The notes under the pieces were generated by a model, which did not search any database, was not told the origin of the DNA, and saw only the letters and a list, made by a program, of their open reading frames with translations. Source: a bacterium (lineage in GTDB: Bacteria > UBA8248). Taken from it: a stretch of DNA of 64,000 nt. The stretch spans positions 640,001 to 704,000 of the forward strand of contig OZ253442.1 in assembly GCA_965261085.1 (NCBI GenBank), written 5' to 3'. Both the position numbers and the translations under genes were made by a program. Positions 7,648-46,033 of the stretch are shown piece by piece (positions within the stretch are counted from its first letter, which is position 1; every line of letters starts with the position of its first letter).

Positions 7648-8427
7648 TCACGCGTCCCGCCATTCGGTTTTAGAGGGCAGCGCGCCGCCCCTGAAGTTGA
7701 ACAGCACGGCGGGGGCGTCGCTCGCGTTGTGCACCGAATGCCAGGCGCCGCCGGGCGTGTGCACCAGATCGCCTCGGGAGGCCTCTATCGTCTCGCCTTC
7801 GATGATGATGTTCATCCTCCCTTCCAATATGAGCGTTCCCTCGTCAATGGTTTCCTGATGGCGGTGGACGTGGGGTCTCGCGCCCGGGAGAAACGAGGCC
7901 ACCTGGCACTCGAGGTATTCCGTGGAGATGGCCTTCTGGAAGCCCTTTTGCTTCACGGATTCGGGGTCGAACGGGCTTATCAGCGAATCGACGTCGCCCT
8001 TGATGTAGGGGACGGGCGGGGCGAGTGGGTTTTGCACCGATTGCGGATCGGGATTGGGGGGCGGATCGCCCGGCGGCACGAGGAAGCCTGAGGGCATCCG
8101 GCCTCCCCGGAAGTTGAACTCTATCAATTCGTCTTGGCCGGTGTTCTTCATGTGGTGCATCGCGCCGCGCGGGTTTAAGAGCACGTTTCCCTTCCCGACT
8201 TCGAACGTAGTGCCGTCGTTGTGGATCAGTCCGCGCCCGCCATAGATGAGGTAGCCCTCGTCCATCTCCTCGTGATGCGCGTGATAGGGAGGATAGACCC
8301 CCGGCTGAAGCACGATGACCCGCACCTCGAGATTGGGCGTGTCGATGCAGATGGGTGAGCCTTTTTCGCGTGCTTCTTCCTCGTCGTAGACCCATTTGAC
8401 CTCTTCAATGTTCCCCACGTAAGGCAT
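7648..8427 (-). CDS. bicupin (two cupin domains)
   Basis: YHAHHEEMDEGY...GAMHHMKN and VHRHQETIDEGT...GAWHSVHN; GGAG before ATG 8427. Confidence 0.85.
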   Translation of the reverse strand: MPYVGNIEEVKWVYDEEEAREKGSPICIDTPNLEVRVIVLQPGVYPPYHAHHEEMDEGYLIYGGRGLIHNDGTTFEVGKGNVLLNPRGAMHHMKNTGQDELIEFNFRGGRMPSGFLVPPGDPPPNPDPQSVQNPLAPPVPYIKGDVDSLISPFDPESVKQKGFQKAISTEYLECQVASFLPGARPHVHRHQETIDEGTLILEGRMNIIIEGETIEASRGDLVHTPGGAWHSVHNASDAPAVLFNFRGGALPSKTEWRDA

Positions 8428-8553
8428 AAGAACTCCATATAATCGGTGGATGGATGAGAAAAGGGTATCCCCGGCGGCGTTGCGGAGCAAGTCGACCAAG
8501 GGCATGATAAAGACGAAAGGGCGCAAGAATATTTCTCATAGTGGAGATTCGGT

Positions 8554-12640: not shown

Positions 12641-13489
12641 TTACGCCACCAAGTCTTTATAGCGGAGCCTCTTGCCGTTCATGCCGAGAACCATGGATTG
12701 CATCTGTTCGATGGTATCCATGGGGCGGAGATTATGGCGTCCTGCAAATTCATTCACATATCGTTGCAGGTGCTTCCGGCTCATGTTGTGATAGACGCCA
12801 TGATACCCTCTTTTGAGCATAGACCAAAATGATTCAATCCCGTTTGTGTGAGCCATGCCGTTTACATACTCTTTGGCGGAATGCCGTACGCTTTCGTGCT
12901 TGTATTCGCCGCCGTACTCATCGCCAAGGTGGACGTAACCCCGATTTTCGTCGGTGAAAAGCGTGGCTCCCGGAACGACATTCTCACGAACAAATTTCTT
13001 GAGAGTCTCGCCTTTTCCATCCTCAAGAACATCGGCCTTCACCCGTCCGGTTTCCCTATCCTTTGCGCCGATGATTCCCGTCTTATTCACGGGGCCGCGC
13101 CCTTCCTTCGTCCGCTTTGACGTGGGCTTGTTTTTCTCAAGGCCACCAATATAGCTTTCGTCAACTTCCGTAGGGCCGGAAAACAATCCGCCGTTTTCCT
13201 GCCACGTCTCCCGGATACGATGCGCCAAGTGCCACGCGCTCTTTTGTGTGATGCCGAGATCGCGGTGCAACTTCATGGATGATACGCCCTTGAGGTTCGT
13301 GGTGGAAAGGTAAATCGCAATCGCCCACTTTTGAAATCCGAGATTAGACCCTTGCATGAGTGTTCCGGTCTTTACCGAAAAATCCTTGCGGCAATCTGAA
13401 CACCAATACGGGAGGGGCTTTTCATTCGGAACAGGAGATACTTTGATGCTTCCGCAATGAGGGTAGTATCGCTCCTGATTAGGCCAGCG
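12641..13489 (-). pseudogene. IS1595-family DDE transposase lacking its N-terminus
   Basis: frame extends upstream of ATG 13357 as RWPNQERYYPHCGS...YWCSDCRKDFSVKTGTLM (Zn ribbon); EVDESYIGG, TDE, HTNGIESFW, YVNEFAGRHN. Confidence 0.9.
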
Positions 13490-13786: not shown

Positions 13787-14173
13787 CTATTCCGCGCGGA
13801 GGATGCTCCTCGCTTTTTCTCCCTCGGGCGTCACGGCCAGCACCTCGAGACTCGGCCGCGCCGGGCTTCTCGTGAGCAGGAGTTCCACGGGCTCATCCAG
13901 CGCCATGATCTCATGCACTTCTCCGGGCGGGAACTGCACTAGATCGCCGGGCGCGGCCTCTAAGACCTCTCCTTCCACGGCGATGCGGAGACTGCCCTTC
14001 AGGAGATAGAGGAATTGCTCGTCATGGTGATAGTGCGGGTTGGAATGGCCGTTCGCCTCCATGCGGAAAAAACCGATGGTGGTATGGGCGCCATCGACCC
14101 AGGCGGCGTTTGCGGTCACGTAGTCGGCGGCCTTTCCCTGCTCCTGTCCGGCGAGATTTCTGTATATCGGCAT
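13787..14173 (-). CDS. cupin domain protein
   Basis: PHYHHDEQFLYLLKG...FPPGEVHEI; GGAGG before ATG 14173. Confidence 0.85.
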   Translation of the reverse strand: MPIYRNLAGQEQGKAADYVTANAAWVDGAHTTIGFFRMEANGHSNPHYHHDEQFLYLLKGSLRIAVEGEVLEAAPGDLVQFPPGEVHEIMALDEPVELLLTRSPARPSLEVLAVTPEGEKARSILRAE

Positions 14174-14333
14174 GACGTGAACTCCCCTCCATGAGGTGAT
14201 GATCGGTATACGCGGTGTCGGGCGTATTCTAACGGCATGGACTCGCAATCTGTCCAACGCCCATGTATATTTGTTCGACATAATCAATGGCGAGCATATC
14301 CTGCGCTACATAGAGTTTTTCCGGAGGTATTTC

Positions 14334-15368
14334 GTGAGCGCTCCTCCCGTGGATGAGTTCGAATATTTCTTTGAAAAACCCTGGTCGGACGGCCTGCCGG
14401 TCATCCCCCCGACGGAAGAGCGCCTGGGACTCATGCTGGCGGGTACGAGCCGCGCTCCGGACGAAGTCATCGGGGACGTGCCCCCGCTGCTGGCCCAGGC
14501 GGACGTTCGGACGATCGCCGTTCATGCCGTCATGGCCGGATGCAAACCGGAGTATATGCCCGTTCTCATCGGGGCGGTCGAAGCCATTCTGGAAGAAAAA
14601 TTCAATGCGGGAGGCGTGCAGGCGACGCTCTCATGCGCGGCCCCGCTTTTGATCGTGAACGGCCCTTACGCCAGGAAAATCGGCATACACGGCGGGCTCG
14701 GCTGTTTCGGTCCGGGAAATCGCGCAAACGCGACGATTGGCCGCGCCATCAGGCTTTTGCTCCTCAACGTAGGCGGCGGAATACCGGGTATCACCTCGAT
14801 GAGCACGTTTTCACAACCGGGGAGGTTCACGTTCTGCATCGCCGAGAACGAAGAGGAAAGCCCCTGGGAGTCTCTTGCGCTGACGAAGGGTTTTGGCGCG
14901 GACGCGGACGTCGTCACCGTCGTGCATGTGGAAGGCCCCGTCATGGTCTGGGATGACGTGAGTAACGACCCCGAACGAATGTTCCCCTCCATTGCGGACA
15001 CCATGTCGCATTTGGGCGCCTGGAATTGTTGGGCCAGCACCGATTTGGTAGTGGCCATGAGCCCGCAGCAGGCTGCGATTTGCGCGAAGAGGGGGTATTC
15101 CAAGGCGGATGTCCATGGACGCCTTTGTGAAATCGCGGGCCGCACGGTGGGCGAGCTCAAAACGGGAGGGCATTTCAGGGAAAATCGGATCAAGGATTTT
15201 CCGATCCCTGTAGATTTGGAAGATGACGATGCGTTTGTTCCGGCGATAAAAGAGGCCCAGAGACTGCTCTTGATCGTGGCGGGCGGAATTCCGGGGCCGA
15301 TGACGGCCGTGATGCACGGCTGGAACGGCAGTAGCCACTCTGTATCCCGTTCATTTGAATCCTGGTGA
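14334..15368 (+). CDS. uncharacterised WSDGLPV-PT family protein (UGSC-associated), paralogue 1
   Basis: GGAGG before GTG 14334; WSDGLPVIPPT, AVMAGCKP, NGPY, GCFGPGNRANATIGRA, ENEEESPWE. Confidence 0.85.
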   Translation: MSAPPVDEFEYFFEKPWSDGLPVIPPTEERLGLMLAGTSRAPDEVIGDVPPLLAQADVRTIAVHAVMAGCKPEYMPVLIGAVEAILEEKFNAGGVQATLSCAAPLLIVNGPYARKIGIHGGLGCFGPGNRANATIGRAIRLLLLNVGGGIPGITSMSTFSQPGRFTFCIAENEEESPWESLALTKGFGADADVVTVVHVEGPVMVWDDVSNDPERMFPSIADTMSHLGAWNCWASTDLVVAMSPQQAAICAKRGYSKADVHGRLCEIAGRTVGELKTGGHFRENRIKDFPIPVDLEDDDAFVPAIKEAQRLLLIVAGGIPGPMTAVMHGWNGSSHSVSRSFESW

Positions 15369-15393
15369 TGCCCGTATATTTCAGGGGAGGTGA

Positions 15394-16428
15394 ATGGTTT
15401 TGAACGATCCTCAAGATGAATTCGAGTTTTTCCTGGAAAAACCCTGGTCGGACGGCTTGCCAGTCGTCACGCCAACGGAAGAGCGCATAGAGCGCATGCT
15501 TTCGGGCACGAAAAGAAGTCCAGGCGAGTTCATAGGTCACGTTCCTCCCGCCATGGGCGAGGCTACGGTCCATAGCGTGGCGGTTCATGCGGTAATGGCC
15601 GGCTGTAAGCCCGAGTATCTGCCGGTCGTTCTCGGCGCTACCTCCCTCATGCTTCGCGATGAGTTCAACATGAACGGCGTGCAGGGTACCATGCATGGTG
15701 TGGCGCCACTGATGATCGTGAATGGCCCTTATTCCGAGCAAATCGGCATTCACGGAGGAAATGGCTGCTTTGGCCCCGGCTTTAGGTCCAACGCTTCCAT
15801 TGGACGAGCCATTCGCCTGATTCTCATGAATCTGGGCGGGGGCATCCCGGGCGTTTCTTCTATGACGATTTTCGGCACGCCGCTTCGCTACACCGCGTGC
15901 ATCACGGAAAACCTTCAGTTTCACCCCTGGGAGACGCTCGCTGAATCCAGAGGATATCGGGCGGATGAAAATGTTATTACCATGGCTATGGTGGAAAGCC
16001 CGCGCCTGACTTTCGATGACGTCAGTGAGGAGCCCGAGCGCCTGCTCCGGGGAATCGCCGATGCGATGACGGGCTTGGGTTCCTGGAACATGCATGCGCC
16101 CAGGACCGACATGGTCGTCGCCATGAACCCCCAGCATGCGAAAATTTGCTTTGACGGCGGTTTTACGCACTCGGACGTGCATCAGCGGCTGTGTGAATTG
16201 GCCGGCCATAAGGTAAAAGATCTGAAACGCGGCGGCAACTGGCGACGCGCGCGCGCGCTGGATATGTATATCCATGTGGATCCCGATGATGATGATTTTT
16301 TTGTCCCCGTCATCAAAGACCCCCGCGATCTCCATTTTATCGTCGCGGGCGGCTGGGGTTCCGGCAGCGCGGTCTGCCATGGGTGGAGTGGTGGCAGCCG
16401 CGCCGTTCATGGGGCCTATGAAGTGTAG
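15394..16428 (+). CDS. WSDGLPV-PT family protein, paralogue 2
   Basis: same motif set; GGAGG RBS. Confidence 0.88.
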   Translation: MVLNDPQDEFEFFLEKPWSDGLPVVTPTEERIERMLSGTKRSPGEFIGHVPPAMGEATVHSVAVHAVMAGCKPEYLPVVLGATSLMLRDEFNMNGVQGTMHGVAPLMIVNGPYSEQIGIHGGNGCFGPGFRSNASIGRAIRLILMNLGGGIPGVSSMTIFGTPLRYTACITENLQFHPWETLAESRGYRADENVITMAMVESPRLTFDDVSEEPERLLRGIADAMTGLGSWNMHAPRTDMVVAMNPQHAKICFDGGFTHSDVHQRLCELAGHKVKDLKRGGNWRRARALDMYIHVDPDDDDFFVPVIKDPRDLHFIVAGGWGSGSAVCHGWSGGSRAVHGAYEV

Positions 16429-16469
16429 CGCCGGAGCGGCCATGACGAACAGAACGAAGTCATATTCCT

Positions 16470-17486
16470 ATGGATGAATTTGAGTTTTTCTTCCAAAAAC
16501 CCTGGTCGGATGGTCTTCCGGTAATCCCCCCTACCCAAGAGCGAATGGACGCGATGCTCTCGGGCACGAGACTTGAAAAGTCAGATACCATTGGTTTGGT
16601 GCCGCCCCTCATGGGTCAGGCGAGCGTAGGCGCGATTGCCGCACACGCCGTAATGGCGGGGTGTGAGCCTTCGTTTTTGCCCGTCGTTATTTCAGGCCTC
16701 CAGGCGCTCCTTGCACCAAAACTCAACTTAAACGGCGTGCAGGGCACAATGCACAGCGCGGCCCCTTTGATTATCGTGAACGGGCCTTATGCGAGAAAAA
16801 TCGGTCTGCACGGAGGCACAGGGTGTTTTGGGCCGGGTTTTCGGGCGAATGCGACGATCGGACGCGCTATCAGGCTCATTCTCATGAACTTGGGCGGAGG
16901 TGTGCCGATTTCCGCCTCGATGAGCACGTTCGGCTCACCTGCCAGATATACATTTTGTATTGCCGAGAATGAAGCGGAAAGCCCTTGGGAGCCATTTTCC
17001 GTCACGAGAGGATTTCTTCAGGATGACGATGTTGTAACCGCCGTGATGACGGAAGCGCCCCAAGGGTATATTGATGATTATTCCAAGGAGCCAGAATCTT
17101 TTTTCGTGGGTCTGGCGGATAAAATATCCACATTAGGCTCGCTGAATATATGGCTTAAGACCCAGGTCGTTGTCGCTTTGGGCCCGGATCATGCGCGTAT
17201 GTGTGCGGAAGCGGGCCTTGATAAAGGAGATGTTCATCGCCGGATAGTTGAACTTGCATGCAGGCCTCTCGGAGAACTCAAGAGATCGGGCTATTGGCGC
17301 GAAAATATGATGGCCAAATGGCCATTTGATATCGACCCGCAGGATGATTCGGTTATGGTACCGGCGATTAAGGATGAAGATGATCTGTTGCTTGTTGTTG
17401 CAGGAGGCACCCCCGGGCCGGTAACGGCCGTCATGCCCGGCTGGGTGGATGGGAGTGAGGCGGTCTCGACGGATTATCAACCATAA
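16470..17486 (+). CDS. WSDGLPV-PT family protein, paralogue 3
   Basis: same motif set. Confidence 0.88.
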   Translation: MDEFEFFFQKPWSDGLPVIPPTQERMDAMLSGTRLEKSDTIGLVPPLMGQASVGAIAAHAVMAGCEPSFLPVVISGLQALLAPKLNLNGVQGTMHSAAPLIIVNGPYARKIGLHGGTGCFGPGFRANATIGRAIRLILMNLGGGVPISASMSTFGSPARYTFCIAENEAESPWEPFSVTRGFLQDDDVVTAVMTEAPQGYIDDYSKEPESFFVGLADKISTLGSLNIWLKTQVVVALGPDHARMCAEAGLDKGDVHRRIVELACRPLGELKRSGYWRENMMAKWPFDIDPQDDSVMVPAIKDEDDLLLVVAGGTPGPVTAVMPGWVDGSEAVSTDYQP

Positions 17487-17521
17487 GCGCTTCAGTCGGG
17501 ATAATATTTGAGGATGAACGT

Positions 17522-18541
17522 ATGGATGAATTCGAGTTTTTCCTGGGAAAAGAATGGTCAGATGGCTTGCCTGTCGTGACGCCGACGGAAGAGAGAATCG
17601 GTTTGATGCTCTCTGGAACCAGAAGGGAGTCGGGCGAAGTAATCGGCCATGTAGCTCCGGCTGGGGGCGAGCTCAGCATACAAACCATGGCAACGCATGC
17701 CGTGATGGCGGGATGTAAGCCTGAATACATGCCAGTGTTGATAGCAGGACTGGAAGCGCTTCTTGATGAGCGGTTTAACGTAAATCTGATTCAGGCCACA
17801 ACGAGCGCGGGCGCACCATTTTTGTTGGTCAATGGCCCCTACGCCAAGGAAATCGGACTACACGGGGGAGTGGGCTGCATGGGCCCCGGCTTTCGCGCAA
17901 ATCTGACTATTGGCCGCGCCGTGAGGCTCATCATGATGAATGTGGGAGGAGGAATTCCCGGAGTCACCTGCCTCGGTGGATTTGGAGGTCCTTGGCGAAA
18001 CACTTTTTGCATCATGGAGAACGAGGAGGAATCGCCTTGGGAGTCGTATGCAGAGTCCAAAGGGTTTTCAAAAAACGATAATGTGGTGACAATGATTCCC
18101 CTCGAAGGGCCCGTTCAGGTATGGGACGATGCGAGCCTGACTCCCGATAGGCTTCTTACGACGATTGCCGATATGATGTCCGCATTGGGTGGGCCCAACA
18201 TGTATCGGCAAGCGGACATGTCGGTTGTCCTGGGCGCGCAACATGCGCATCTTTGCGCTGACGCCGGGCTGACCCGTAGCGATGTCCATCAAAAGTTACT
18301 AGAAATGGGAGGGAGAACTATTGGGGATATAAAGCGCGGCGGCATCTGGCGAGGTGAGAAAGGCGCAGATCGCTGGCCGTTTCCCGTGGATGTGAATGAT
18401 GATGATTTTTTTGTGCCTGCGGTAGGTGATCCCGACGATCTTCATTTGATCGTCGCAGGAAGCAGAGGTTCACCCTCGAGCATGGTCATGCACGGAATTA
18501 CCGTGGCGTGCCGAGCCGTGATAAAAAAATTTAGTGTGTGA
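17522..18541 (+). CDS. WSDGLPV-PT family protein, paralogue 4
   Basis: same motif set. Confidence 0.88.
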   Translation: MDEFEFFLGKEWSDGLPVVTPTEERIGLMLSGTRRESGEVIGHVAPAGGELSIQTMATHAVMAGCKPEYMPVLIAGLEALLDERFNVNLIQATTSAGAPFLLVNGPYAKEIGLHGGVGCMGPGFRANLTIGRAVRLIMMNVGGGIPGVTCLGGFGGPWRNTFCIMENEEESPWESYAESKGFSKNDNVVTMIPLEGPVQVWDDASLTPDRLLTTIADMMSALGGPNMYRQADMSVVLGAQHAHLCADAGLTRSDVHQKLLEMGGRTIGDIKRGGIWRGEKGADRWPFPVDVNDDDFFVPAVGDPDDLHLIVAGSRGSPSSMVMHGITVACRAVIKKFSV

Positions 18542-18629
18542 AATAGCTTGATGGCGTGACAAAATCTCATGTGCCACTTGTTCGTATAAGCCTTTGTGAA
18601 GCTAGTAATGGTTTGGTGTTTTTCTGAAG

Positions 18630-18662
18630 AAAAAAGCCCCGGCAGCTTGCCGGGGCTTTTTT
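18630..18662. terminator. bidirectional intrinsic terminator
   Basis: A6-GCCCCGGCA-GCT-TGCCGGGGC-T6 between convergent genes. Confidence 0.9.
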
Positions 18663-18677
18663 GTGATTGATCGCCAG

Positions 18678-20939
18678 TTAATGGCCGTTGCTTTTACCGT
18701 TTTTCTTCATGACCGCCCAGCAGACTCGCTCAGGCGTGATGGGAAGGTCGTAAACTTCCGTGCCTATCGCATCGTTGATGGCGAGGGCGACGGCGGCTGG
18801 CGCATTATTACATGGTGGTTCTCCGACGCCCCGCGCACCATATGGACCCGCGCCTTCTCCACATTCGAGAACGACAGACTCAAACTCGCCAATATCCGAG
18901 GAGGTGGGAATCAGGTACTCGTGAAAACTCTGTGATCGGCAATCTCCTTCCACCATGGTGATTTCCTCGTGCAGAGCGTAGCCAATCCCCATCACCGCGC
19001 CCCCTTCAAATTGCCCCTCCACGCTTTGAGGGTTTAGCGCTCGCCCGACATCATGGGTGGCGACATGCTTCAAGAGATTCACTTCGCCAGTTTCGACATC
19101 AACTTCCACTTCGCTTGCATGAACGCCAAAGGTGTAGTCCGCCCATCCGCCCATGCCGTTCATGTATCGTTCCGGATTCTCATATTCGTGCCCCGGCATG
19201 TTGTAGCCATGCGTGCAATGGAGTGACTCGCCCATTTGCTTGGCTTCGCCCGCCGCGGCTCCGATGGTCACTCTCCTCTCGGGAGAGGAGGCCACCCACG
19301 CTTCGCCGCCAGCGATGCGAATGTCTTCCTCCGCAGCCTCAAGCAACGATGCGGCACCTTTTGTGACAGCTTTTCGAACCTCGTCTGCTGCAAGCCGAAC
19401 GGCGTGCCCCGCCATAAGCGTTTGGCGGGAGCCTGCAGTGATGCCCGAAAGCGGCGTAGTGGCGGAATCGGACAAGCGGGTGGAAACTTGGTTGAGCCTG
19501 AGCCCCAGGGTTTCAGCCGTGATGCTTTGAAGCGTAGCGCCCTGCCCTGCCCCAATATCTGGTGCGCTCACACGGACCACGGCACTGCCGTCCGGCTCGA
19601 GGTGAACGGCTGCATTCGCATCGTCACTCGGCCTTCCGTAGCCGGTAATATTCGCAGCCGCCGCCCGGCCAATGCGCTTGCCAGGGCCTGGTTTAGCGGG
19701 TTCGCCCAGGGCCTTAAGCGCGCTATCGAGGCATCCTTCCAGGTTTGGTTCATAAGGAATTTTCTGCCCAGTCGGCAGTTCTTGTCCTTTCTGAATGAAA
19801 TTTTTTCGCCTGAATTCGTATTTGTCCATGCCGATGGCGTCTGCGACCAGGTTCATTTGATTTTCATAAGCGAAGCAAACCTGGTTCGACCCAACACCGC
19901 GCATTGCGTTGGTGATGGGGTTATTGGTGAGGTAGCCGTGCGCGCGAATTTTCACGTGGGAAACGTCATATGGGCCTGCGGCGATGCACATCGCGCCCAA
20001 GAGGAACAAATTGGATTTATATGGATAGGCGCCTGCGTCGCCTACGATATCCGCTTGCACGGCCAGGATTTTCCCGTCCTTGGTGGCTCCCGTTTTGTAC
20101 TTCATATAAAAAGGATGCTTTTTCGAGGTGTTTCTAATGCCATGCTCGCGCCCCAGCACCATCACGGCCGACCTTCGAGTATGCCAGGTGAGTAGAGCAA
20201 GGTAGGGTTCTACGGTCAGCATGCCCTTGGCGCCGAATCCCCCGCCGACATAAGTGCCAAGGTGACGAACGCGGCTCTGAGAAATCCCCAAAATCGCCGC
20301 TATGGCGCGATAATATTCGATAAGCTGCGTGCCGACGCGAATGGTAATAACGCCGTCTTCTTCCATCCAGGAAGTGCCGGATGCGGGTTCCAGGAATGCG
20401 TGTTCGGCAAGTTGCGTGGTGTATGTTTTCTCAATCACCACATCGGCTTCGTCAAACGCGGTTTTTATGTCTCCACGGATAACCTCGAAATCACACGCCT
20501 GTCGTTTCTCGGCGCTCGTTTCATCATGACGCGTTGTCCACACCCCTTCTTCTGCTTCGATTTCCACCTCGATGGCCGAGATGGCGGCATCAAGCGCTTC
20601 CCTGGTCTCAGCGCCTACGATTGCAAGGGCGTCTCCCGTAAATTCGATTTTATCTTCCACCAGCACTGGCTGATGTGGCAGGCCCGGCGTGCCGGAGCCG
20701 TATCGAACGTTCGTGCCGGGAATGTCCTTTGCGGTCAGAATGGCGGCTACGCCTGGAATTTTTTCAGCTATTGAAGTGTCGAGTTTTTTCAAACGGCCTA
20801 CGGGGACGGGCGTAAATAATACGCCGCACTGCAAAGCGCCTGCGGGGATCGCGTCTTCTCCGTAGGGCATGGAACCATCCGCTTTCGGAATAGAATCATA
20901 TCGGACGTTCGATTTGCCGATGATATCGTAATCGGGCAT
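18678..20939 (-). CDS. xanthine dehydrogenase/aldehyde oxidoreductase family molybdopterin-binding subunit
   Basis: AAGGAG before ATG 20939; EHAFLEP, VGGGFGAK, AMRGVG, AGSRQT, GQFEGG, ARGVGEPP. Confidence 0.92.
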   Translation of the reverse strand: MPDYDIIGKSNVRYDSIPKADGSMPYGEDAIPAGALQCGVLFTPVPVGRLKKLDTSIAEKIPGVAAILTAKDIPGTNVRYGSGTPGLPHQPVLVEDKIEFTGDALAIVGAETREALDAAISAIEVEIEAEEGVWTTRHDETSAEKRQACDFEVIRGDIKTAFDEADVVIEKTYTTQLAEHAFLEPASGTSWMEEDGVITIRVGTQLIEYYRAIAAILGISQSRVRHLGTYVGGGFGAKGMLTVEPYLALLTWHTRRSAVMVLGREHGIRNTSKKHPFYMKYKTGATKDGKILAVQADIVGDAGAYPYKSNLFLLGAMCIAAGPYDVSHVKIRAHGYLTNNPITNAMRGVGSNQVCFAYENQMNLVADAIGMDKYEFRRKNFIQKGQELPTGQKIPYEPNLEGCLDSALKALGEPAKPGPGKRIGRAAAANITGYGRPSDDANAAVHLEPDGSAVVRVSAPDIGAGQGATLQSITAETLGLRLNQVSTRLSDSATTPLSGITAGSRQTLMAGHAVRLAADEVRKAVTKGAASLLEAAEEDIRIAGGEAWVASSPERRVTIGAAAGEAKQMGESLHCTHGYNMPGHEYENPERYMNGMGGWADYTFGVHASEVEVDVETGEVNLLKHVATHDVGRALNPQSVEGQFEGGAVMGIGYALHEEITMVEGDCRSQSFHEYLIPTSSDIGEFESVVLECGEGAGPYGARGVGEPPCNNAPAAVALAINDAIGTEVYDLPITPERVCWAVMKKNGKSNGH

Positions 20940-21135
20940 TTGTTTACTCCTTAAGGATAGAGAATTCCCATGAATTGGACTTGATTTTGCCAAAATTCGA
21001 CGAATCTGAGAAGCGGGCGAAAAGAATCATTCATGTTTTCGAGAAAAAATCGAATCGATGGATATCGTAGACAAGGAGTGATTTGCGAGATATGATTTAG
21101 ACACGGGTGAATTCACATATTATATGGAGAAAACC

Positions 21136-21666
21136 ATGGCGAACGGAATGGGATTTATCGACCCGACGGCGGGTGGCTCGGCTGCGCGAATCGAGCTTGC
21201 GCAACGGCCCGACGATCTTTCTGGAAAAGTGGTGGGCCTCCTCGATAACACCAAAGAACAAGCAGATATTATTTTAGAAACTCTGGGGAATGCTCTGCGC
21301 GAGCAATACGATGTGGCCAGAGTCGTCTCGCTGCGCAAGGAGCATTACTCGAAACCCGCCACGGATGAAATGATCGAAGAAATGGCCCAGGAGGTGGATG
21401 TGGCGATTGCCGCATTGGGCGGCTGAGGCTCCTGCACGTTGTGCAGTGTGCACGACACCGTTGAATTTGAAAAACGTGGCATTCCTTCAACGACCATCAT
21501 CACCGAGGCATTCAAGAACGCGGCGGACTTTCAATTCCGTGGCAAAGGCATGGAAGGCCACCCGTATGTGCAGTTGCCTCACCCAGTCAGTAATTTACAG
21601 CCCGAAGAAATGCGGGAGACTACGCTCAAGTTTGTCGAAGAAGTGGCCAGCCATCTGAAAAGCTGA
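21136..21666 (+). CDS. UGSC-family selenoprotein; TGA 21424-21426 predicted selenocysteine
   Basis: ORFs 21124-21426 and 21439-21666 share a frame and read ALGG-U-GSCTLCSVHD..EKRGIP...PHP; GGAG before ATG 21136. Confidence 0.88.
21438..21456 (+). promoter_or_regulatory. putative bacterial SECIS hairpin
   Basis: GTTGTGCA-GTG-TGCACGAC, 8-bp stem with G-led loop 19 nt after the TGA. Confidence 0.6.
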
Positions 21667-21705
21667 TCCGAGTCGAAGCGAAAAGGTATTTTCCAGGAGG
21701 GGTAT

Positions 21706-22488
21706 GTGCGCGAATTTGAAACGATATCTTATTCGGAAGAAGATGGATTGGCGTTAGTGAAGCTCAACCGCCCGGAGAGCCTGAATGCGGTCAGCTTCAA
21801 GATGGCGGAAGAATTCGTGGAATTGGCGCGAACCTTGGCCGACGCACAGAAAGTGCGTGTAGTTATCCTCACTGGAGAGGGACGCTCTTTCAGTACGGGT
21901 CGAGACTTGAAAGAAAGCGCTACGCATACGAAGGAGATGGCTGATCAGTACCAGCGTCATGTGATGGTGACGACGACATTATGGGAGCGTTTACCCATGC
22001 CCACCATCGCCGCCATCAATGGTCACGCGTTTGGCTGGGGTGTGGAAATTACATTGGGATGCGACATCAGGCTGGCTGCGGAAGAGGCCACTCTTTGTCT
22101 GCCGGAATGCAGCTTGGGTATTTTCCCTGGGGCTGGCGGGGTGGTCAGGCTCCAAAGAATCATGCCGGCTGGCCAGGCGAAAGAGCTGGTTTTCACGAGC
22201 AAGCGAATCGATGGAATAGAAGCCGAGCGCATCGGTTTGGTGAACAAGGCACATCCGCGTGACAGTCTCATGAACGAAGCGACGGCCATGGCGGAAACGA
22301 TAAGAGACAATGGCCCTCTGGGAGTTCGCGGGGCAAAGAAAGTAATCGACCAAACACTCGATATGCCGCTCGCTCAGGCTGTAGAGTTTTCCAACGCCCT
22401 CAGGTTGCCGTTGAATCACACCAAAGATTTCGCCGAAGCGCTGGCGGCGTTCAAAGAGAAGAGGAAACCCAATTTTACAGGAGAATAA
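21706..22488 (+). CDS. enoyl-CoA hydratase/isomerase (crotonase) family
   Basis: LNRPESLNA, FSTGRDL, AAINGHAFGWGVE, PECSLGIFPGAGG. Confidence 0.92.
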   Translation: MREFETISYSEEDGLALVKLNRPESLNAVSFKMAEEFVELARTLADAQKVRVVILTGEGRSFSTGRDLKESATHTKEMADQYQRHVMVTTTLWERLPMPTIAAINGHAFGWGVEITLGCDIRLAAEEATLCLPECSLGIFPGAGGVVRLQRIMPAGQAKELVFTSKRIDGIEAERIGLVNKAHPRDSLMNEATAMAETIRDNGPLGVRGAKKVIDQTLDMPLAQAVEFSNALRLPLNHTKDFAEALAAFKEKRKPNFTGE

Positions 22489-22517
22489 AAGTCGTCAAAA
22501 TTTTGCATGAACTACCG

Positions 22518-22545
22518 AGCCTGTCCTCCTGAGGATGGGCTTTTT
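22518..22545 (+). terminator. possible intrinsic terminator after first crotonase
   Basis: AGCCTGTCCTC..GAGGATGGGCT hairpin followed by a T-run. Confidence 0.5.
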
Positions 22546-22550
22546 GTTCA

Positions 22551-23264
22551 TTGGGACGGAAAATGAATCAAGACCTGCTTATCACACATATTGAATCCAA
22601 TATCGCAAGCATCACAGTGAATCGCCCGGAAACGCGAAATGCGTTCAACACGCCATTGATGAAGGCCATGTGTATGGTGATGGCTGAAATTAAGGCCAAG
22701 CGGGATGTTAAAGTTCTTATAGTGACGGGCGCAGGAAGTTCTTTTTCTTCAGGCCGCGATCTGAAAGAAAGCACCACCCATACAAAAGAGCAAGCCAAGA
22801 GTTTCATGATGTTGGGTGAGAGATGGAGTACGACTCTCCGTGAATTGCCTGTTCCCACGATAGCCGCGGTGAACGGCCCCGCCTTCGGGTGGGGAATGGT
22901 GTTGATGCTCGCATGTGACATTCGTATTGCGGTGAATGATGCAATTTTGGGATATCCAGAGACCGCGTTGGGAGTATTTCCGGGAGCAGATGCCACCGTT
23001 CGTCTGACCCGACAGATTTTTGTGCCATCTGCAAAAGATTTGGTGCTCACCGGCAGAAGGTTTGATGCGCAAGAGGGATATCGCTTAGGATTGTTGAATC
23101 GGATCACTTCTAAGAGAGAATTGAGGGCGGAAACTGACGCTCTGGCTGGTGAAATTGCCCAAAATCCGCTGGAAAGACTAAAAGCGATGAAATCAACATT
23201 TGTGAAAGTTGAAATGATGCCGCGTTTTGGACATTTATCGGTGGCCGAGAAACTCGAACGATGA
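22551..23264 (+). CDS. enoyl-CoA hydratase/isomerase family, paralogue (start may be ATG 22563)
   Basis: VNRPETRNA, FSSGRDLKES, AAVNGPAFGWG, PETALGVFPG. Confidence 0.88.
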   Translation: MGRKMNQDLLITHIESNIASITVNRPETRNAFNTPLMKAMCMVMAEIKAKRDVKVLIVTGAGSSFSSGRDLKESTTHTKEQAKSFMMLGERWSTTLRELPVPTIAAVNGPAFGWGMVLMLACDIRIAVNDAILGYPETALGVFPGADATVRLTRQIFVPSAKDLVLTGRRFDAQEGYRLGLLNRITSKRELRAETDALAGEIAQNPLERLKAMKSTFVKVEMMPRFGHLSVAEKLER

Positions 23265-23641
23265 AAGTCCGGGAGTGTTTTTTGCAGGCGGTAGCGATTG
23301 TTGGAGCGGAGGAAGACGCCAGAGAGGCATGGACGGCTATGAACAGGATAAATGCACCTTGGGCCGCGATTTTTAATGAGAAACGCTTGGTGGGGATCTT
23401 AAATAAAAGCGACATTGATGCGGTTATTCGTGTGCCCGAGGTTTTTCAAATAGTGGGGGAGATTGCCGAGAAGGGAATGCCTGCGAGGCGAGGAATGTCT
23501 TTGTCTCCAAACATGGATTTGAACGAGGCTGCTCTTCAACTCGAAATGGCGAGAACGGATGCCGCTTTAGTCGAAGGTGTTGGCAGACCACCTGGCGTTA
23601 TTGAAATGGATGCAGCCAATCGCGCATTGTTATTTACTTAA
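23261..23641 (+). CDS. hypothetical protein, degenerate CBS-pair-like
   Basis: ATGA overlap with upstream gene; RLVGILNKSDI and LSPNMDLNEAA resemble CBS motifs. Confidence 0.55.
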   Translation: MKVRECFLQAVAIVGAEEDAREAWTAMNRINAPWAAIFNEKRLVGILNKSDIDAVIRVPEVFQIVGEIAEKGMPARRGMSLSPNMDLNEAALQLEMARTDAALVEGVGRPPGVIEMDAANRALLFT

Positions 23642-23719
23642 TGATGCGCTTTTTGTTTTCCTTGAAGCTAGCCGAATCATTGCCTCGCTTTCGGGGAATG
23701 ATTAGCGGGAGGGGTATAG

Positions 23720-24916
23720 ATGGAATTCACATTAAGTGAAGATCAGTTGCGGATTCAGCAAATAGCCAGAAAATTTTCCTATGAAGAACTGGCCCCGGTG
23801 GCCCCCGAACGCGATCGGATTCAGAATTGGGAAGAGCGGATGCCGTGGGACTTGACGGAAAAAGCAAGCGCTTTGGGCCTCCGGCAACTGCCTTATCCGA
23901 AAGAATATGGCGGCATGGACGCCGATGTGCTTTCGTGTTGCCTGGCGGGGGAAGAGCTTGCCGTGGGTGATCTGGGTTTTGCGGTAAATCTGGATCAGAC
24001 CTGGAAGCTGTCTCATATCCTCGAAATAGTTGAGCCTGAACTCAGAGACCCCTGGATAAAACGCTTGTGTGAAGAACCAAGATTCCTGGTTGCGATTTCC
24101 ATGACGGAAGAAGGAGCGGGAAGCGATCACCAAGGATATTATGACGATCCCTCCATCGCGCTTTATGCGCGTGCGGAGAAAAAAAATGGCAAATGGATCA
24201 TCAATGGGAAAAAGCGCTACATCAGCAACGGCCCTGTGGCATCATTGTACGTTTTAGCGGCGAGAACTGATCTCAGCAAAAACCTAAGAGAAAGTTTAAC
24301 TGGTTTTCTGGTTCCGAGAGACACTCCTGGCGTATCGATCGGCCATGTGCATGAAAAAATTGGTCAACGTCTTTCGATGAATTCGGAAATCTTTTACGAA
24401 AATGTCGAAATTCCAGAGAACCACGTTATCTTAGGTGAAGGAAGCATGTTTGAAATCAGGGGCAATCTCCTGGCGATGGGCAAACCAGAAGCAGCCGCCA
24501 CAGTTCTGGGTGTCGGACGCGCCGCATTCGAAAAAGCCCTTGATTACAGCCGAAAACGTGTTCAGGGAGGCAAGCCCATCGCCCAGCATCAGGCGATAGA
24601 AACCATGCTCGCTGATATGGCGATGAATCTGGATATCGCGCGCACCTACATTTGGCGCACTGCCTGGGCGGTGGATCATCAAAAACCCTATGATTTCACG
24701 CAAGGATGGAAGTGCAAGGTTTTTGCATCGGAGGTTGCCTTTGACTGCGCGCGTCTGGGGATGGAGATATTTGGAGGAGCGGGCATTATGCACGACGCTC
24801 CCATGGAGAAATATCTTCGTGATGCCAGCACATTTTTGCATTCAGACGGCACGAATCAAGTCTTGCGGTTGAGAACGGCCCAGGCCTATGTGAAAGGCTT
24901 AGCCACGGCGTTTTAG
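23720..24916 (+). CDS. acyl-CoA dehydrogenase family protein
   Basis: MTEEGAGSD, INGKKRYISNG, RVQGGKPI, FGGAG...EKYLRDA, DGTNQV. Confidence 0.93.
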   Translation: MEFTLSEDQLRIQQIARKFSYEELAPVAPERDRIQNWEERMPWDLTEKASALGLRQLPYPKEYGGMDADVLSCCLAGEELAVGDLGFAVNLDQTWKLSHILEIVEPELRDPWIKRLCEEPRFLVAISMTEEGAGSDHQGYYDDPSIALYARAEKKNGKWIINGKKRYISNGPVASLYVLAARTDLSKNLRESLTGFLVPRDTPGVSIGHVHEKIGQRLSMNSEIFYENVEIPENHVILGEGSMFEIRGNLLAMGKPEAAATVLGVGRAAFEKALDYSRKRVQGGKPIAQHQAIETMLADMAMNLDIARTYIWRTAWAVDHQKPYDFTQGWKCKVFASEVAFDCARLGMEIFGGAGIMHDAPMEKYLRDASTFLHSDGTNQVLRLRTAQAYVKGLATAF

Positions 24917-24939
24917 CGACACCGAAAGAGGTATTCGAG

Positions 24940-25491
24940 ATGATGGGTCGGTTGGATGGCTGGCGGCAAGGTGAATTATTCCTTCAAGACGGAGAATCGC
25001 TAAAACATCATGTTGCTGACTGGCTGAAGAAAGTGCGCTCGGAATTCTCGGTTTTTATGTCGGATGAGGGCATTGCGGAAATAAGAATGTTGAATGGCGT
25101 GGAGAAGCCTCTCGCGGCTGATCATGCGAGTGAACAATCAACGCCTTTGAGTCGTCGAGCCTCAAAGGAAATAGAAGAGTACCTGAGAGGCACTCGCCAA
25201 AGTTTCAAACTGAAAACAGACCTCTCCATTCTCACGCCTTTTATGGAAAAGGTACTCAGGGAGACAGAAAAAATTCCTTATGGAGAGACACGCTCCTACG
25301 GCTGGGTGGCGAAGCAGATCGGCAACCTGAAAGCTTCACGCGCCGTTGGACAGGCGCTGCATAGAAATCCCGTTCCCCTTGTAATACCCTGACATCGGGT
25401 CATCGCGAGTTCGGGTGAACTCGGTGGATTCGCTAGCAGCGTGTCGCTCAAGGCGGCACTCTTAGTCCATGAGAGGAGTCATAAAAATTAG
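24940..25491 (+). CDS. ogt: methylated-DNA-protein-cysteine S-methyltransferase with TGA (predicted Sec) at the active site
   Basis: IPYGETRSYG..ASRAVGQA..RNPVPLVIP-TGA-HRVIASSGELGGF...KAALL.HE; readthrough ends at TAG 25491. Confidence 0.88.
25406..25423 (+). promoter_or_regulatory. putative bacterial SECIS hairpin
   Basis: CGAGTTC-GGGT-GAACTCG perfect 7-bp stem; loop starts 20 nt after TGA 25390-25392. Confidence 0.65.
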
Positions 25492-25541
25492 GGCACGCGG
25501 ATTTCGCTTGGTGGCATCCAGGAAATATCGGAGGATGAAAA

Positions 25542-26117
25542 ATGTCAAAACAGATGAATGATTTTGTCGATCATGTACGTCAAATTGTAAAAACAGGTGG
25601 CTCCGAAGAAGAAATAACCGCCCGCGTAGCGGCGAGCCTCGATCCGATTCTCAGTGACCCGGACTTGTTGAGTGATGATCAACTCTTGGTGAAACAAGAA
25701 GGATTTACGCTCAACCAGATTCATATCGAGCCGGATGAGAATTTCTCCATAGGTGCCGGCATATGGGATGTAGGACAGACTACTCCGATTCACGATCATG
25801 GTACTTGGGGCGTGATAGGCATTTACCGTGGAATGGAGAACGAAGAGAGTTTTTTGCGTGAAGGTCCCCGGGAAAACGGGGCCCGTGTAAATCTTACACC
25901 CCAAGGCAAACGCTTGGCCGGGCCCGGAGATGTCTTTGTCTGCTGCACAAAGGACAATGACGTGCACCGAGTGAGTTGTGCTTCGTCTGAACCCGTGGTG
26001 GGTGTCCATGTCTATGGTGGTAATCTCGCCAAGATAGCGCGTTTTAAGTACGAAGAATTAACCGGCGAAGTGAAATCGTTTAATACAGGGTGGGATTATG
26101 CGAAAAACTCTGCTTGA
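25542..26117 (+). CDS. cysteine/thiol dioxygenase family protein
   Basis: TPIHDHGTWG, DVHRV, VHVYGG. Confidence 0.82.
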   Translation: MSKQMNDFVDHVRQIVKTGGSEEEITARVAASLDPILSDPDLLSDDQLLVKQEGFTLNQIHIEPDENFSIGAGIWDVGQTTPIHDHGTWGVIGIYRGMENEESFLREGPRENGARVNLTPQGKRLAGPGDVFVCCTKDNDVHRVSCASSEPVVGVHVYGGNLAKIARFKYEELTGEVKSFNTGWDYAKNSA

Positions 26118-44626: not shown

Positions 44627-46033
44627 ATGAGCGATTCGGATTCTCTCATCACAGATGCCATCGTCGAATTTGTCTTGGAGACGGAATACGAAGACATTCC
44701 TGAAGATGTCAGGGTAATCATGCGCCGCTGTTTTGTGGATGGTATCGGTTTGATGGTTGCGGGTTCCACAGAAGAAAGTGGGCAGATAATTCAAAACTAC
44801 CTCAGGGAAATTGGAGGAGAACCCGAGGCGCGTGTAGTAGGGACTGATATGACGGTGCCTGCCCATCTTGCCGCTTTGGCCAATGGCATCGCGGGCCATG
44901 CAATGGATTATGACGATACGCAGTTGAGCAGCTATCCAGATCGTGTGTACGGCTTGTTGACTCACCCCACATGTCCGGTGATGCCCGCTGCTATGGCTAT
45001 TGCCGAGGCGCTGGGCGCAACGGGGCAGGAGTTGCTCACTGCATTTGCGCTGGGCTTCGAAGTGGAATGTAAGGTGGCGGAGGCGATTCGGCCGGATCAT
45101 TACATCAAAGGATTTCATTCCACGGGAACGATTGGCGCCATTGGAGCGGCTACTGCAGCCGCGAAGTTGATGGGATTGAATGAACATCAATTGCGTATGT
45201 GCTACGGGATCACCTGTTCGGAAAGTGCCGGTCTTCGTGCTAATTTTGGAACGATGACGAAGCCGTACCACTGTGGCCGCGCGGCGGAGAACGGTGTTGT
45301 AGCGGCAAGGTTGGCGTCGGGCGGTTACTCTTCGGACCCCACGATATTTGATGGACAATGGGGATTTTTCCAGATTATGGGTGGTGGTTGTGATCAAGAT
45401 TATATTGTTGGAAAACTTGGTAATGCCTGGTCGGCGGTAGATCCCGGAGTGTCGATTAAACCATATCCTTGCGGTTCCCTGTCACACCCTGCCATGGATG
45501 CCGCCCGGGATCTGATTTTAGAAAATGATGTCAAGCCAGAGCAGGTCAAAGAGTTACGTTTTGGGACCACCTCGCGCGTGTTGGAACCTCTGCGCTACAC
45601 GGAGCCGCAAAACGAACTGGAGGCTAAATTTTCTTTACAATTTGGGTTTGCCGCCTTGTTGTTAGAGCGCGCAGCTGGGATTGCTCAATATAAAGACGAG
45701 GTCGTCAAGCGTCCCGATGTCGTGGAGATGATGAAAAAGATAAATGCCTTCAAGGACGATGAAATCGAGGCCCAGGGTTACGCTCTCATTCGCGGCAAGG
45801 TGGCGATAGAACTTGAAGACGGCACGGTGTATGAGAAAATGTCGGAAATCTCCCGTGGCACTCCTCAGCGCCCCATGGATCGCGAGGAGCTTTACGAGAA
45901 ATTCACGGAATGCAGCAGCTTGGTGTACGAGAGCAATCAGATCGCTATGATTGAGGCGATGCTCTATAAAATCGATACGCTCGAAAACATCCATGGCCTC
46001 ATCGAGTTCTTAGGCGAGAAAATGGAAGTCTAA
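44627..46033 (+). CDS. MmgE/PrpD family protein
   Basis: GHAMDYDD, THP, GFHSTG, GTMTKPYH, IKPYPCG, AKFS. Confidence 0.93.
   Translation: MSDSDSLITDAIVEFVLETEYEDIPEDVRVIMRRCFVDGIGLMVAGSTEESGQIIQNYLREIGGEPEARVVGTDMTVPAHLAALANGIAGHAMDYDDTQLSSYPDRVYGLLTHPTCPVMPAAMAIAEALGATGQELLTAFALGFEVECKVAEAIRPDHYIKGFHSTGTIGAIGAATAAAKLMGLNEHQLRMCYGITCSESAGLRANFGTMTKPYHCGRAAENGVVAARLASGGYSSDPTIFDGQWGFFQIMGGGCDQDYIVGKLGNAWSAVDPGVSIKPYPCGSLSHPAMDAARDLILENDVKPEQVKELRFGTTSRVLEPLRYTEPQNELEAKFSLQFGFAALLLERAAGIAQYKDEVVKRPDVVEMMKKINAFKDDEIEAQGYALIRGKVAIELEDGTVYEKMSEISRGTPQRPMDREELYEKFTECSSLVYESNQIAMIEAMLYKIDTLENIHGLIEFLGEKMEV

Follow-up and report, generated by a model that had tools for sequence, protein, structure and literature searches.

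The stretch of DNA analysed here (the window) comprises 64,000 nucleotides (nt) of a bacterial genome of the GTDB lineage UBA8248 (assembly GCA_965261085.1, contig OZ253442.1, positions 640,001 to 704,000), and its region from 13.8 to 26.1 kb encodes a candidate two-component thiol/selenol system formed by the selenoprotein UGSC and a family of proteins of approximately 340 amino acids (aa) with the motif W-S-D-G-L-P-V. This paralogue family, the partner of UGSC, is designated W, and its four copies in the window are W1 to W4. The region is organized in three transcription units. The first contains W1 (14334-15368; 344 aa, with an alternative open reading frame (ORF) start at 14196), W2 (15394-16428; 344 aa), W3 (16470-17486; 338 aa), and W4 (17522-18541; 339 aa), all on the + strand and separated by gaps of 25-41 bp, with a divergent cupin-domain gene upstream (13787-14287, - strand; Pfam Cupin_2, E 7.2e-15). 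The second is a single - strand gene, convergent with W4, that encodes the large subunit of a molybdenum (Mo) hydroxylase (18678-20993). The third is divergent from the second and encodes, on the + strand, UGSC (21124-21660), the crotonases ECH1 (21706-22488) and ECH2 (22551-23264), a small CBS-domain protein (23261-23641, its start overlapping the ECH2 stop by 4 bases), an acyl-CoA dehydrogenase (ACAD) family protein (23720-24916), an Ogt-like alkyltransferase of the selenocysteine (Sec) type (24940-25491), and a thiol dioxygenase (25542-26117). The initial annotation of this DNA had placed all of these genes correctly, the cupin included, and had omitted the CBS gene alone. The complete gene order was found again in approximately 22 related genomes (by tblastn and the synteny of fetched loci), and thus the arrangement is not due to chance. 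The cupin gene similarly lies beside the W array in most Nitrospinota-labelled loci and in one Tectomicrobia-labelled locus (42-98% identity, tblastn). Genome-wide counts refer throughout to the single-contig genome of 4.27 Mb that holds the window, the close relatives of which are labelled Nitrospinota or Nitrospinaceae.

All four W proteins carry the W-S-D-G-L-P-V motif; W2, W3, and W4 are 55-57% identical to W1, and the mean column identity is 71%. No match to W was found in Pfam, NCBIfam, or the sequences of the PDB, and a search of the ESM Atlas returned solely 'hypothetical' clusters. The family comprises 5,581 proteins at E <= 0.001 among 8,000 candidates scored, and, when clustered at 50% identity, 5,698 clusters at E <= 0.001 and 1,602 at E <= 1e-30. 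Among the 120 matches listed, no W relative has a Pfam domain, and any that has a name is annotated as hypothetical. Across 77 sequences, the near-invariant residues are the N-terminal D-G-L-P, C71, R138, C169, E172, and W179 (W2 numbering for the cysteines); the two cysteines sit in A-V-M-A-G-C and C-x-A-E-N, and every conserved residue is kept by W1 to W4. An AlphaFold model of W2 built with the 77-sequence alignment has a pLDDT of 95.2 and a pTM of 0.93, and a model of W from four sequences was poor (pLDDT 53.6). As modelled, W2 is without a clear solved structural relative: Foldseek found none in the PDB at E <= 1e-3 (top 7xky_A, E 1.7e-3, TM 0.28-0.32), and the best VIA-align match had a Z of 5.5 over 93 residues in a wide search and 4.8 in a second look. 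These matches are domain-level echoes of a chorismate-mutase/RidA-like fold and were not used for function.

A maximum-likelihood tree (64 rows) groups W2 with Chloroflexota-, Tectomicrobia-, and Proteobacteria-labelled copies in a clade of 21 rows (support 98/92) and places W4 in a separate 10-row clade (support 100/100) with Tectomicrobia- and Betaproteobacteria-labelled copies. Therefore, the W duplications are old. W1 and W3 group with close relatives alone. W2 is the widely conserved form, 67-78% identical to copies directly beside UGSC in other phyla; W4 represents a second old orthologous group; W3 is a lineage-specific long branch; and W1 has 1:1 orthologues in related genomes at 80-95% identity. 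The order W-W-UGSC is present in 18 loci from other phyla, the two copies belonging to two separate sub-clades, and ten of ten tested proteins of approximately 710 aa contain two full W domains. The paralogues had initially been proposed to be interchangeable large subunits that share one selenol subunit. This is not specifically supported, as the W-W pairs and double-domain proteins fit W-W hetero-oligomers at least as well as alternative subunits. In betaproteobacterial loci, a gene for a TctC binding protein lies directly upstream of W-W-UGSC.

The window's UGSC scores above the curated cut-offs of both Pfam PF24696 (175.8 bits, cut-off 25; E 1.1e-51) and NCBIfam NF041046 (150.3 bits, cut-off 125), and its in-frame TGA (21424-21426) corresponds to U101 in the motif G-G-U-G-S-C. 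U101-G-S is invariant and C104 near-invariant in 16 UGSC sequences. A TGA occupies the same G-G-U-G-S-C site in 52/52 UGSC homologues of the fetched loci, which have protein identities of 27-96%, and among the 150 matches listed each UGSC match of related genomes has exactly one TGA. A SECIS-like hairpin (21438-21456, + strand; 8-bp stem, loop GUG) begins 11 nt past the UGA. The same hairpin was recovered with RNAalifold from 22 sequences, including one compensatory pair (G-C to A-U via two synonymous changes), and in 26 sequences the entropy of third codon positions is 0-0.52 bits at codons +3 to +10, with flanking codons mostly at 0.9-1.8 bits. Additionally, contigs with unrelated flanks from four RNA-library runs pile up exactly on 21424-21456, and thus the UGA and hairpin form a nucleotide element common to many UGSC genes. 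No Rfam family reached its gathering threshold in the window, and none matched at E <= 1 around the window's two TGA codons (the other is in the Ogt gene), and single-sequence folding past the two codons was no better than shuffles (z 0.97 and -1.05); the informative fold for the Sec element is the alignment-based one. The genome encodes SelA and SelB. Overall, we count Sec decoding in UGSC as established by these comparative data. As far as the available text of a 2008 paper (PMC2398784) and of reviews from 2022 and 2026 (PMC9312934, PMC13188914) goes, the UGSC family has no assigned function. A UGSC paralogue near 1.26 Mb (L076:7406-8029, + strand) reads U-G-S-S and is without the usual resolving cysteine; its operon contains genes for a TAXI/TRAP transporter, a CoA-transferase, a crotonase, UGSC, and W.

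The second TGA codon (25390-25392, codon 151 of the Ogt-like gene) lies in the motif I-P-U-H-R-V, where Sec would stand at the position of the P-C-H-R active-site cysteine; the match to the DNA-binding domain (Pfam DNA_binding_1) ends at the TGA. This codon is kept in 3/3 homologues whose locus reaches the site, and 14 other matches are cut off by the end of the locus. UGSC and the Sec-type Ogt are both listed as predicted selenoprotein families in the available text of the two reviews (PMC9312934, PMC13188914). In two distant lineages, the Sec-type Ogt accompanies UGSC, ECH1, the CBS protein, and the thiol dioxygenase (L018 12423-13055; L066 6250-7494), and in L066 it forms the C-terminal end of a 414-aa ORF. 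Such conserved company is odd for a DNA-repair protein.

Gene adjacency and gene fusion both connect W with UGSC. The genome has 15 W copies and eight UGSC genes, seven of which have a W copy on the same strand at a distance of 78-240 bp; in the window, UGSC is 2.6 kb from the W1-W4 array, with the Mo gene in between. Among the best 150 W representatives, the 62 longer than 400 aa were scanned for fused domains. A UGSC domain was found in 38 of the 62 (34 of these over the cut-off), either N- or C-terminal to W and often cut by gene callers at the Sec codon. The other fusions in this set were to AhpC/redoxin (two), the catalytic chain of ferredoxin-thioredoxin reductase (FTR; one), and a thioredoxin-reductase-like flavoprotein (one). 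Similarly, of 69 W relatives longer than 602 aa, 48 have UGSC, three a thioredoxin-reductase-like module, and one AhpC-TSA. The fusions to redox modules are P0170, P0190, and P0284 (AhpC/redoxin), P0187 (FTR chain), and P0218, P0285, P0287, and P0304 (thioredoxin-reductase-like). The initial annotation had stated that such proteins often neighbour or fuse with UGSC or thioredoxin-like domains, and the neighbourhood and fusion analysis bears this out: W and UGSC are functionally paired. Judged from these sequence comparisons, the conserved core of the system is the W/UGSC pair. According to the available text of Zhang and Gladyshev (PLoS Genet 2008; PMC2398784), UGSC can be fused to an unnamed domain, 'Unknown_1'. 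This domain is probably the W family. W/UGSC pairs elsewhere in the genome adjoin class III CoA-transferases (two pairs), a crotonase, two ACADs, and a CitE-like lyase, and the W/UGSC family probably acts on various small carboxylic acids. An orphan W copy has a CMD-family neighbour, but this is PcaC-like and so was rejected as an AhpD-type redox protein.

The genes downstream of UGSC point to sulfur and CoA metabolism. The thiol dioxygenase has a weak Pfam match (E 0.0032) and a full-length match to solved 3-mercaptopropionate dioxygenases (6xb9_A, E 1.5e-21; 3uss_A, E 2.3e-20; residues 4-186), and contains H-D-H and a later V-H-R-V, which we take to be the histidine metal-ligand positions. 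Cleavage of C-N or C-S bonds had been suggested in the initial annotation, and a sulfur substrate is indeed plausible because the last gene resembles 3-mercaptopropionate dioxygenase. Both crotonases match Pfam ECH_1 (ECH1, E 7.2e-60; ECH2, E 1.2e-45, profile 2-207 of 251, C-terminally shorter), and the closest solved relative of ECH1 is the 3-hydroxypropionyl-CoA dehydratase 5zai (183 bits). The CBS protein scores 25.1 bits in Pfam CBS (cut-off 24). The ACAD has four Pfam ACAD domains, and its best NCBIfam matches, all below cut-offs, include acryloyl-CoA reductase (205 bits) and 3-sulfinopropanoyl-CoA desulfinase; the latter scores 165.7 bits against a cut-off of 600, with four other ACAD models higher, and the protein is thus not identified as a desulfinase. 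It reads S-D-G-T where medium-chain ACADs have Y-E-G-T with the catalytic glutamate, and its catalytic base may be the aspartate or lie elsewhere. UGSC, ECH1, CBS, Sec-type Ogt, and dioxygenase stay together at 47-78% identity in L018 and L066, the two distant loci that reach that far (dioxygenase, 69% and 47%, respectively), and ECH1 adjoins UGSC even in distant lineages.

A comparable gene set is found in the thiodipropionate cluster of Variovorax paradoxus TBEA6, which, according to the available text (PMC6370202), comprises a 3-mercaptopropionate dioxygenase-type enzyme (Mdo), an ACAD-like desulfinase (AcdA), a class III CoA-transferase (Act), and two essential enoyl-CoA hydratases, designated Ech-20 and Ech-30. 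As in the window, an Mdo-type dioxygenase, two enoyl-CoA hydratases, and an ACAD are thus in one cluster, and a related Advenella route can be likened alongside it (PMC5373536, available text). In contrast to the window, the Variovorax cluster has a CoA-transferase, the window ACAD is not matched as a desulfinase, and UGSC, W, or an Mo hydroxylase are not reported in the part of the published description that was available (PMC6370202). The same text describes the thiodipropionate cleavage step as uncharacterised, and TctC proteins have been tested as candidate thiodipropionate importers (PMC8102459, available text). By sequence, the dioxygenase, two crotonases, and ACAD of the window form a set resembling the known thiodipropionate/3-mercaptopropionate genes.

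The Mo hydroxylase large subunit has the hammerhead domain (Pfam Ald_Xan_dh_C) and two Mo cofactor-binding domains (MoCoBD_1 and MoCoBD_2) of the xanthine dehydrogenase family, and its likely start is a methionine 17 codons inside the annotated ORF. Its best solved match is the nicotinate dehydrogenase of Eubacterium barkeri (3hrd_A/B, 264.5 + 194.8 bits), next to which stands 4-hydroxybenzoyl-CoA reductase (1rm6_A, 249.8 bits), and every score against NCBIfam equivalogs is far below the cut-off. No gene for an iron-sulfur (FeS) or FAD subunit (CoxS/CoxM-like) was found in the 64-kb window or in any locus of an orthologue. Across the genome, ten Mo hydroxylase large subunits stand against four 2Fe-2S and four FAD subunits, and most large subunits are without adjacent partners. 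Across 51 genomes of the phylum, the positions of orthologues at least 69% identical were set against those of UGSC genes. UGSC is divergent from the Mo gene on the same contig in 35 of 37 orthologue rows, at a distance of approximately 160-430 bp, and the remaining two rows lie at contig ends. The rows cover seven genera of one family, in which two further genera have UGSC without an orthologue; two Tectomicrobia-labelled contigs have the same Mo-UGSC order. No Mo gene was present within the fetched flanks of W2-type/UGSC pairs outside the lineage. Therefore, the conserved linkage to Mo and CoA genes anticipated in the initial annotation holds within one family and is absent from proteobacterial and Chloroflexota loci; the Mo link is real but confined to one family-level lineage.

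YqeB and YqeC are markers of selenium-dependent Mo hydroxylases. Both are encoded in the genome (YqeB, 368.9 bits with a cut-off of 220; YqeC, Pfam E 3.7e-36), and nicotinate dehydrogenase as the best solved relative is a sequence-level hint that the Mo subunit may depend on selenium. Both terms, YqeB and YqeC, occur in PMC2276186. The genome's only YqeB gene, together with genes for YqeC, XdhC, a CoxD-like AAA protein, and a CoxE-like VWA protein, lies beside a second W-UGSC-ACAD-ACAD locus (L080 = G000:C1:2105000-2121000), with a divergent TetR gene separating the two sets. Four Mo orthologues have one in-frame stop and an intact UGSC (TAA in G024, TGA in G029 and G035, TAG in G023), which could reflect decay, recoding, or an error of assembly. 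An ABC transporter is encoded between the W array and the Mo gene in some related lineages (L045 6122-10064; L046); its nearest matches, all below cut-offs, are putative systems of the 2-aminoethylphosphonate, polyamine, or thiamine type.

Two studies contributed four RNA libraries whose contigs match stretches of the W1, W2, W4, Mo, UGSC, ECH1, ECH2, CBS, ACAD, Ogt, and dioxygenase genes, with 0-5 mismatches to the window among the matches listed, and one contig spans UGSC through the TGA into ECH1. These contigs show presence only, and the uncovered parts carry no meaning. A weak promoter-like site lies ahead of UGSC in the divergent intergenic region (21068-21096, + strand; 10/12 consensus matches), and terminator-like hairpins occur in the downstream operon at 22517-22542 and 23622-23649; the counts of promoter sites and terminators in the region are not above those of shuffles.

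Taken together, the locus may encode a two-component thiol/selenol enzyme, W plus UGSC, that is here part of a pathway acting on a small carboxylic acid that contains sulfur, a reading that we favour tentatively and with slightly less than even confidence. W would be the catalytic part, with its two near-invariant cysteines (C71 and C169 in W2) and conserved aspartate, arginine, and glutamate, and UGSC would carry a GrdB-like U-x-x-C redox centre. We infer that this centre either relays reducing equivalents from thioredoxin-type donors to W or itself attacks the substrate, in which case the reaction would end in an Se-S bond that is afterwards re-reduced. The same logic applies to methionine sulfoxide reductases, in which a nucleophilic Cys or Sec is followed by a resolving Cys and re-reduced by thioredoxin-type donors; the comparison concerns mechanism, as no relation in sequence or fold to these thioredoxin-dependent Cys/Sec enzymes was found. 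W1 to W4, as old and separately conserved forms, would probably be hetero-oligomers or differ in specificity, with one UGSC in common. By reducing a disulfide, sulfoxide, or thioether, W/UGSC may free a thiol such as 3-mercaptopropionate, which the thiol dioxygenase would convert to the sulfinate, while the crotonases and ACAD would process C3 acyl-CoA intermediates and the lone Mo hydroxylase subunit may oxidise a precursor or by-product. For this cluster, our best guess at the substrate class is a C3 acid that bears sulfur.

Several observations weigh against this interpretation. Some fused UGSC domains are without Cys or Sec, which fits a structural as well as a redox role. Other W/UGSC pairs of the genome adjoin genes for peptidases, aminotransferases, and luciferase-like proteins, and such diverse neighbours imply that the whole family cannot share one sulfur substrate. 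To our knowledge, the W/UGSC pair has no known activity, binding, or structure, and as the W model is without a clear solved relative, its fold says nothing about the chemistry. The matches of the crotonases and the ACAD are generic and below all curated cut-offs, no CoA ligase or transferase gene was found in this cluster, and the distant syntenic loci L018 and L066 lack both ACAD and ECH2. Additionally, the lineages with this synteny are related to one another or may have exchanged the block and hence are not independent, and the RNA-library cover is a hint of transcription from libraries that may contain DNA.

The neighbourhood could instead be a mosaic in which W/UGSC is self-contained and the Mo, crotonase, ACAD, Sec-type Ogt, and dioxygenase genes are inherited or block-moved neighbours with no common pathway. 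This is rather unlikely, although it would explain why the closely related W2-type/UGSC pairs in Proteobacteria and Chloroflexota have no Mo or CoA genes next to them, why the contexts of the genome's other pairs vary so widely, and why Ogt is hard to fit into a catabolic route. The two terminator-like hairpins divide the downstream operon, and Tectomicrobia- and Nitrospinota-labelled copies intermingle in the tree, which fits block transfer or mis-binning. However, the divergent Mo-UGSC order persists to 69-79% protein identity across seven genera, UGSC, ECH1, CBS, Sec-type Ogt, and the dioxygenase are kept together at 47-78% identity, intergenic gaps are short, and the terminator count is not above chance. 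It is less probable still that W/UGSC acts on unsaturated di- or tricarboxylates as an isomerase or lyase with covalent catalysis, a selenolate or thiolate adding to C=C and the thioredoxin-type modules merely keeping the enzyme reduced. Consistent with such an activity, W/UGSC neighbours include dicarboxylate-acting proteins (FAH-family hydrolases, cupins, GST, dienelactone hydrolase, CitE-like lyase, and PcaC-like decarboxylase), CoA-transferases of the succinate/glutarate/mesaconate type, and TctC binding proteins, and two conserved cysteines are also a feature of two-base isomerases. The fold of the model faintly resembles class I fumarate hydratase and PrpD-type proteins (Foldseek E 1.7e-3, TM 0.28-0.32; VIA-align Z 3.3-4.1), but these matches are too weak to count, and direct fusions to thioredoxin reductase and FTR are more typical of electron-consuming turnover.

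Two further proposals concern the partners of UGSC. In one, the Mo hydroxylase would use UGSC as its redox partner, such that electrons exit via the Se-S centre and are spent by W, replacing the FeS and FAD subunits. The divergent intergenic region shared with UGSC in 35/37 orthologues, the lack of FeS or FAD subunit genes in the window and orthologue loci, the genomic excess of large subunits (10 versus 4 + 4), and the absence of a thioredoxin reductase gene from the cluster in a Pfam scan all suit this idea. It is nonetheless very improbable: no precedent is known to us, shared small subunits could act in trans, W/UGSC is widespread without any Mo gene, and four close relatives have the in-frame stop in the Mo gene with UGSC intact. 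The other proposal places W/UGSC within the glycine/sarcosine/betaine/D-proline reductase family as a true member whose pyruvoyl-bearing proprotein is W. Glycine/proline-type reductases perform a reductive cleavage that ends in an Se-S bond, and in GrdB/GrdE and PrdB/PrdA a Sec-bearing subunit is likewise combined with a larger substrate-binding subunit. UGSC is weakly similar to the Sec-bearing end of GrdB-type proteins, as the initial annotation had noticed: 11 of 16 UGSC sequences match the GrdB model TIGR01917 at E <= 0.01 (best 2.4e-5), with Sec aligned on Sec. The window's UGSC aligns over residues 80-172 with GrdB 325-414, thus covering just some 90 GrdB residues, at 18.3 bits where a full-length GrdB requires 602, and when its profile was compared with that of a same-genome GrdB-like selenoprotein, Sec fell on Sec with a very low probability of 0.8%. 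The W sequence shows no relation to GrdE/PrdA or to the N-terminal part of GrdB, 320 residues long (hhalign probability 0.2% with the same-genome GrdE-like protein and 0.1% with the GrdB-like one), it has no Pfam match to Gly_reductase, and no GrdA-like protein A gene was seen in the cluster. Two separate, genuine GrdE-like/GrdB-like pairs are encoded elsewhere in the genome, near 2.15 Mb and 1.205 Mb. Therefore, the complex of this type envisaged in the initial annotation is not borne out, and W as a pyruvoyl proprotein is contradicted by the comparisons and merits almost no credence; as far as sequence can tell, W/UGSC stands outside the family of these reductases, although it may work in a similar way. 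The GrdB-like selenoprotein near 2.15 Mb (L085:3392-4702, - strand; 437 aa) has its TGA at codon 350 in P-A-T-U-G-T-G-T and lies next to the GrdE-like proprotein gene (L085:5416-6711, - strand).

Returning to the two-component thiol/selenol enzyme, the W family is very large and unnamed, with neither a curated model nor a solved relative. To this the window adds a lineage whose four old W paralogues share one UGSC, a conserved tie to an Mo hydroxylase subunit without the usual electron-transfer subunits, and a downstream gene set pointing to mercapto- and sulfino-carboxylic acids; new here are the context centred on the thiol dioxygenase and the Mo subunit that stands without its partner subunits. 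An abundant selenoprotein thereby gains a testable substrate class, and the search is narrowed to a short list of purchasable compounds. If the interpretation is true, a major aquatic selenoprotein would have a function that could fill an open step in organosulfur breakdown. A bolder and quite improbable version is that W/UGSC is the missing enzyme that produces 3-mercaptopropionate-type thiols from marine organosulfur acids, and that in this lineage the lone, possibly selenium-dependent Mo subunit feeds it with electrons by way of the UGSC Se-S centre. The step left uncharacterised by the Variovorax work would then be a selenol-dependent reductive cleavage, with a thioether, disulfide, or sulfoxide as the substrate, and the Mo subunit and UGSC would form a redox couple of a kind not described before.

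Other features of the window lie outside the three transcription units. A bicupin protein is encoded 6 kb upstream of the W array (7648-8526, - strand); it matches the Pfam cupin dimethylsulfoniopropionate (DMSP) lyase family at 31.3 bits (cut-off 27) and hints once more at organosulfur metabolism. An ORF for an IS1595-family (ISXO2-like) transposase (12641-13357, - strand) separates the upstream genes from the cupin/W array and is surrounded by a low-GC stretch at 10-14 kb. Finally, an MmgE/PrpD-family gene (44627-46033, + strand) is located 18 kb from the cluster.

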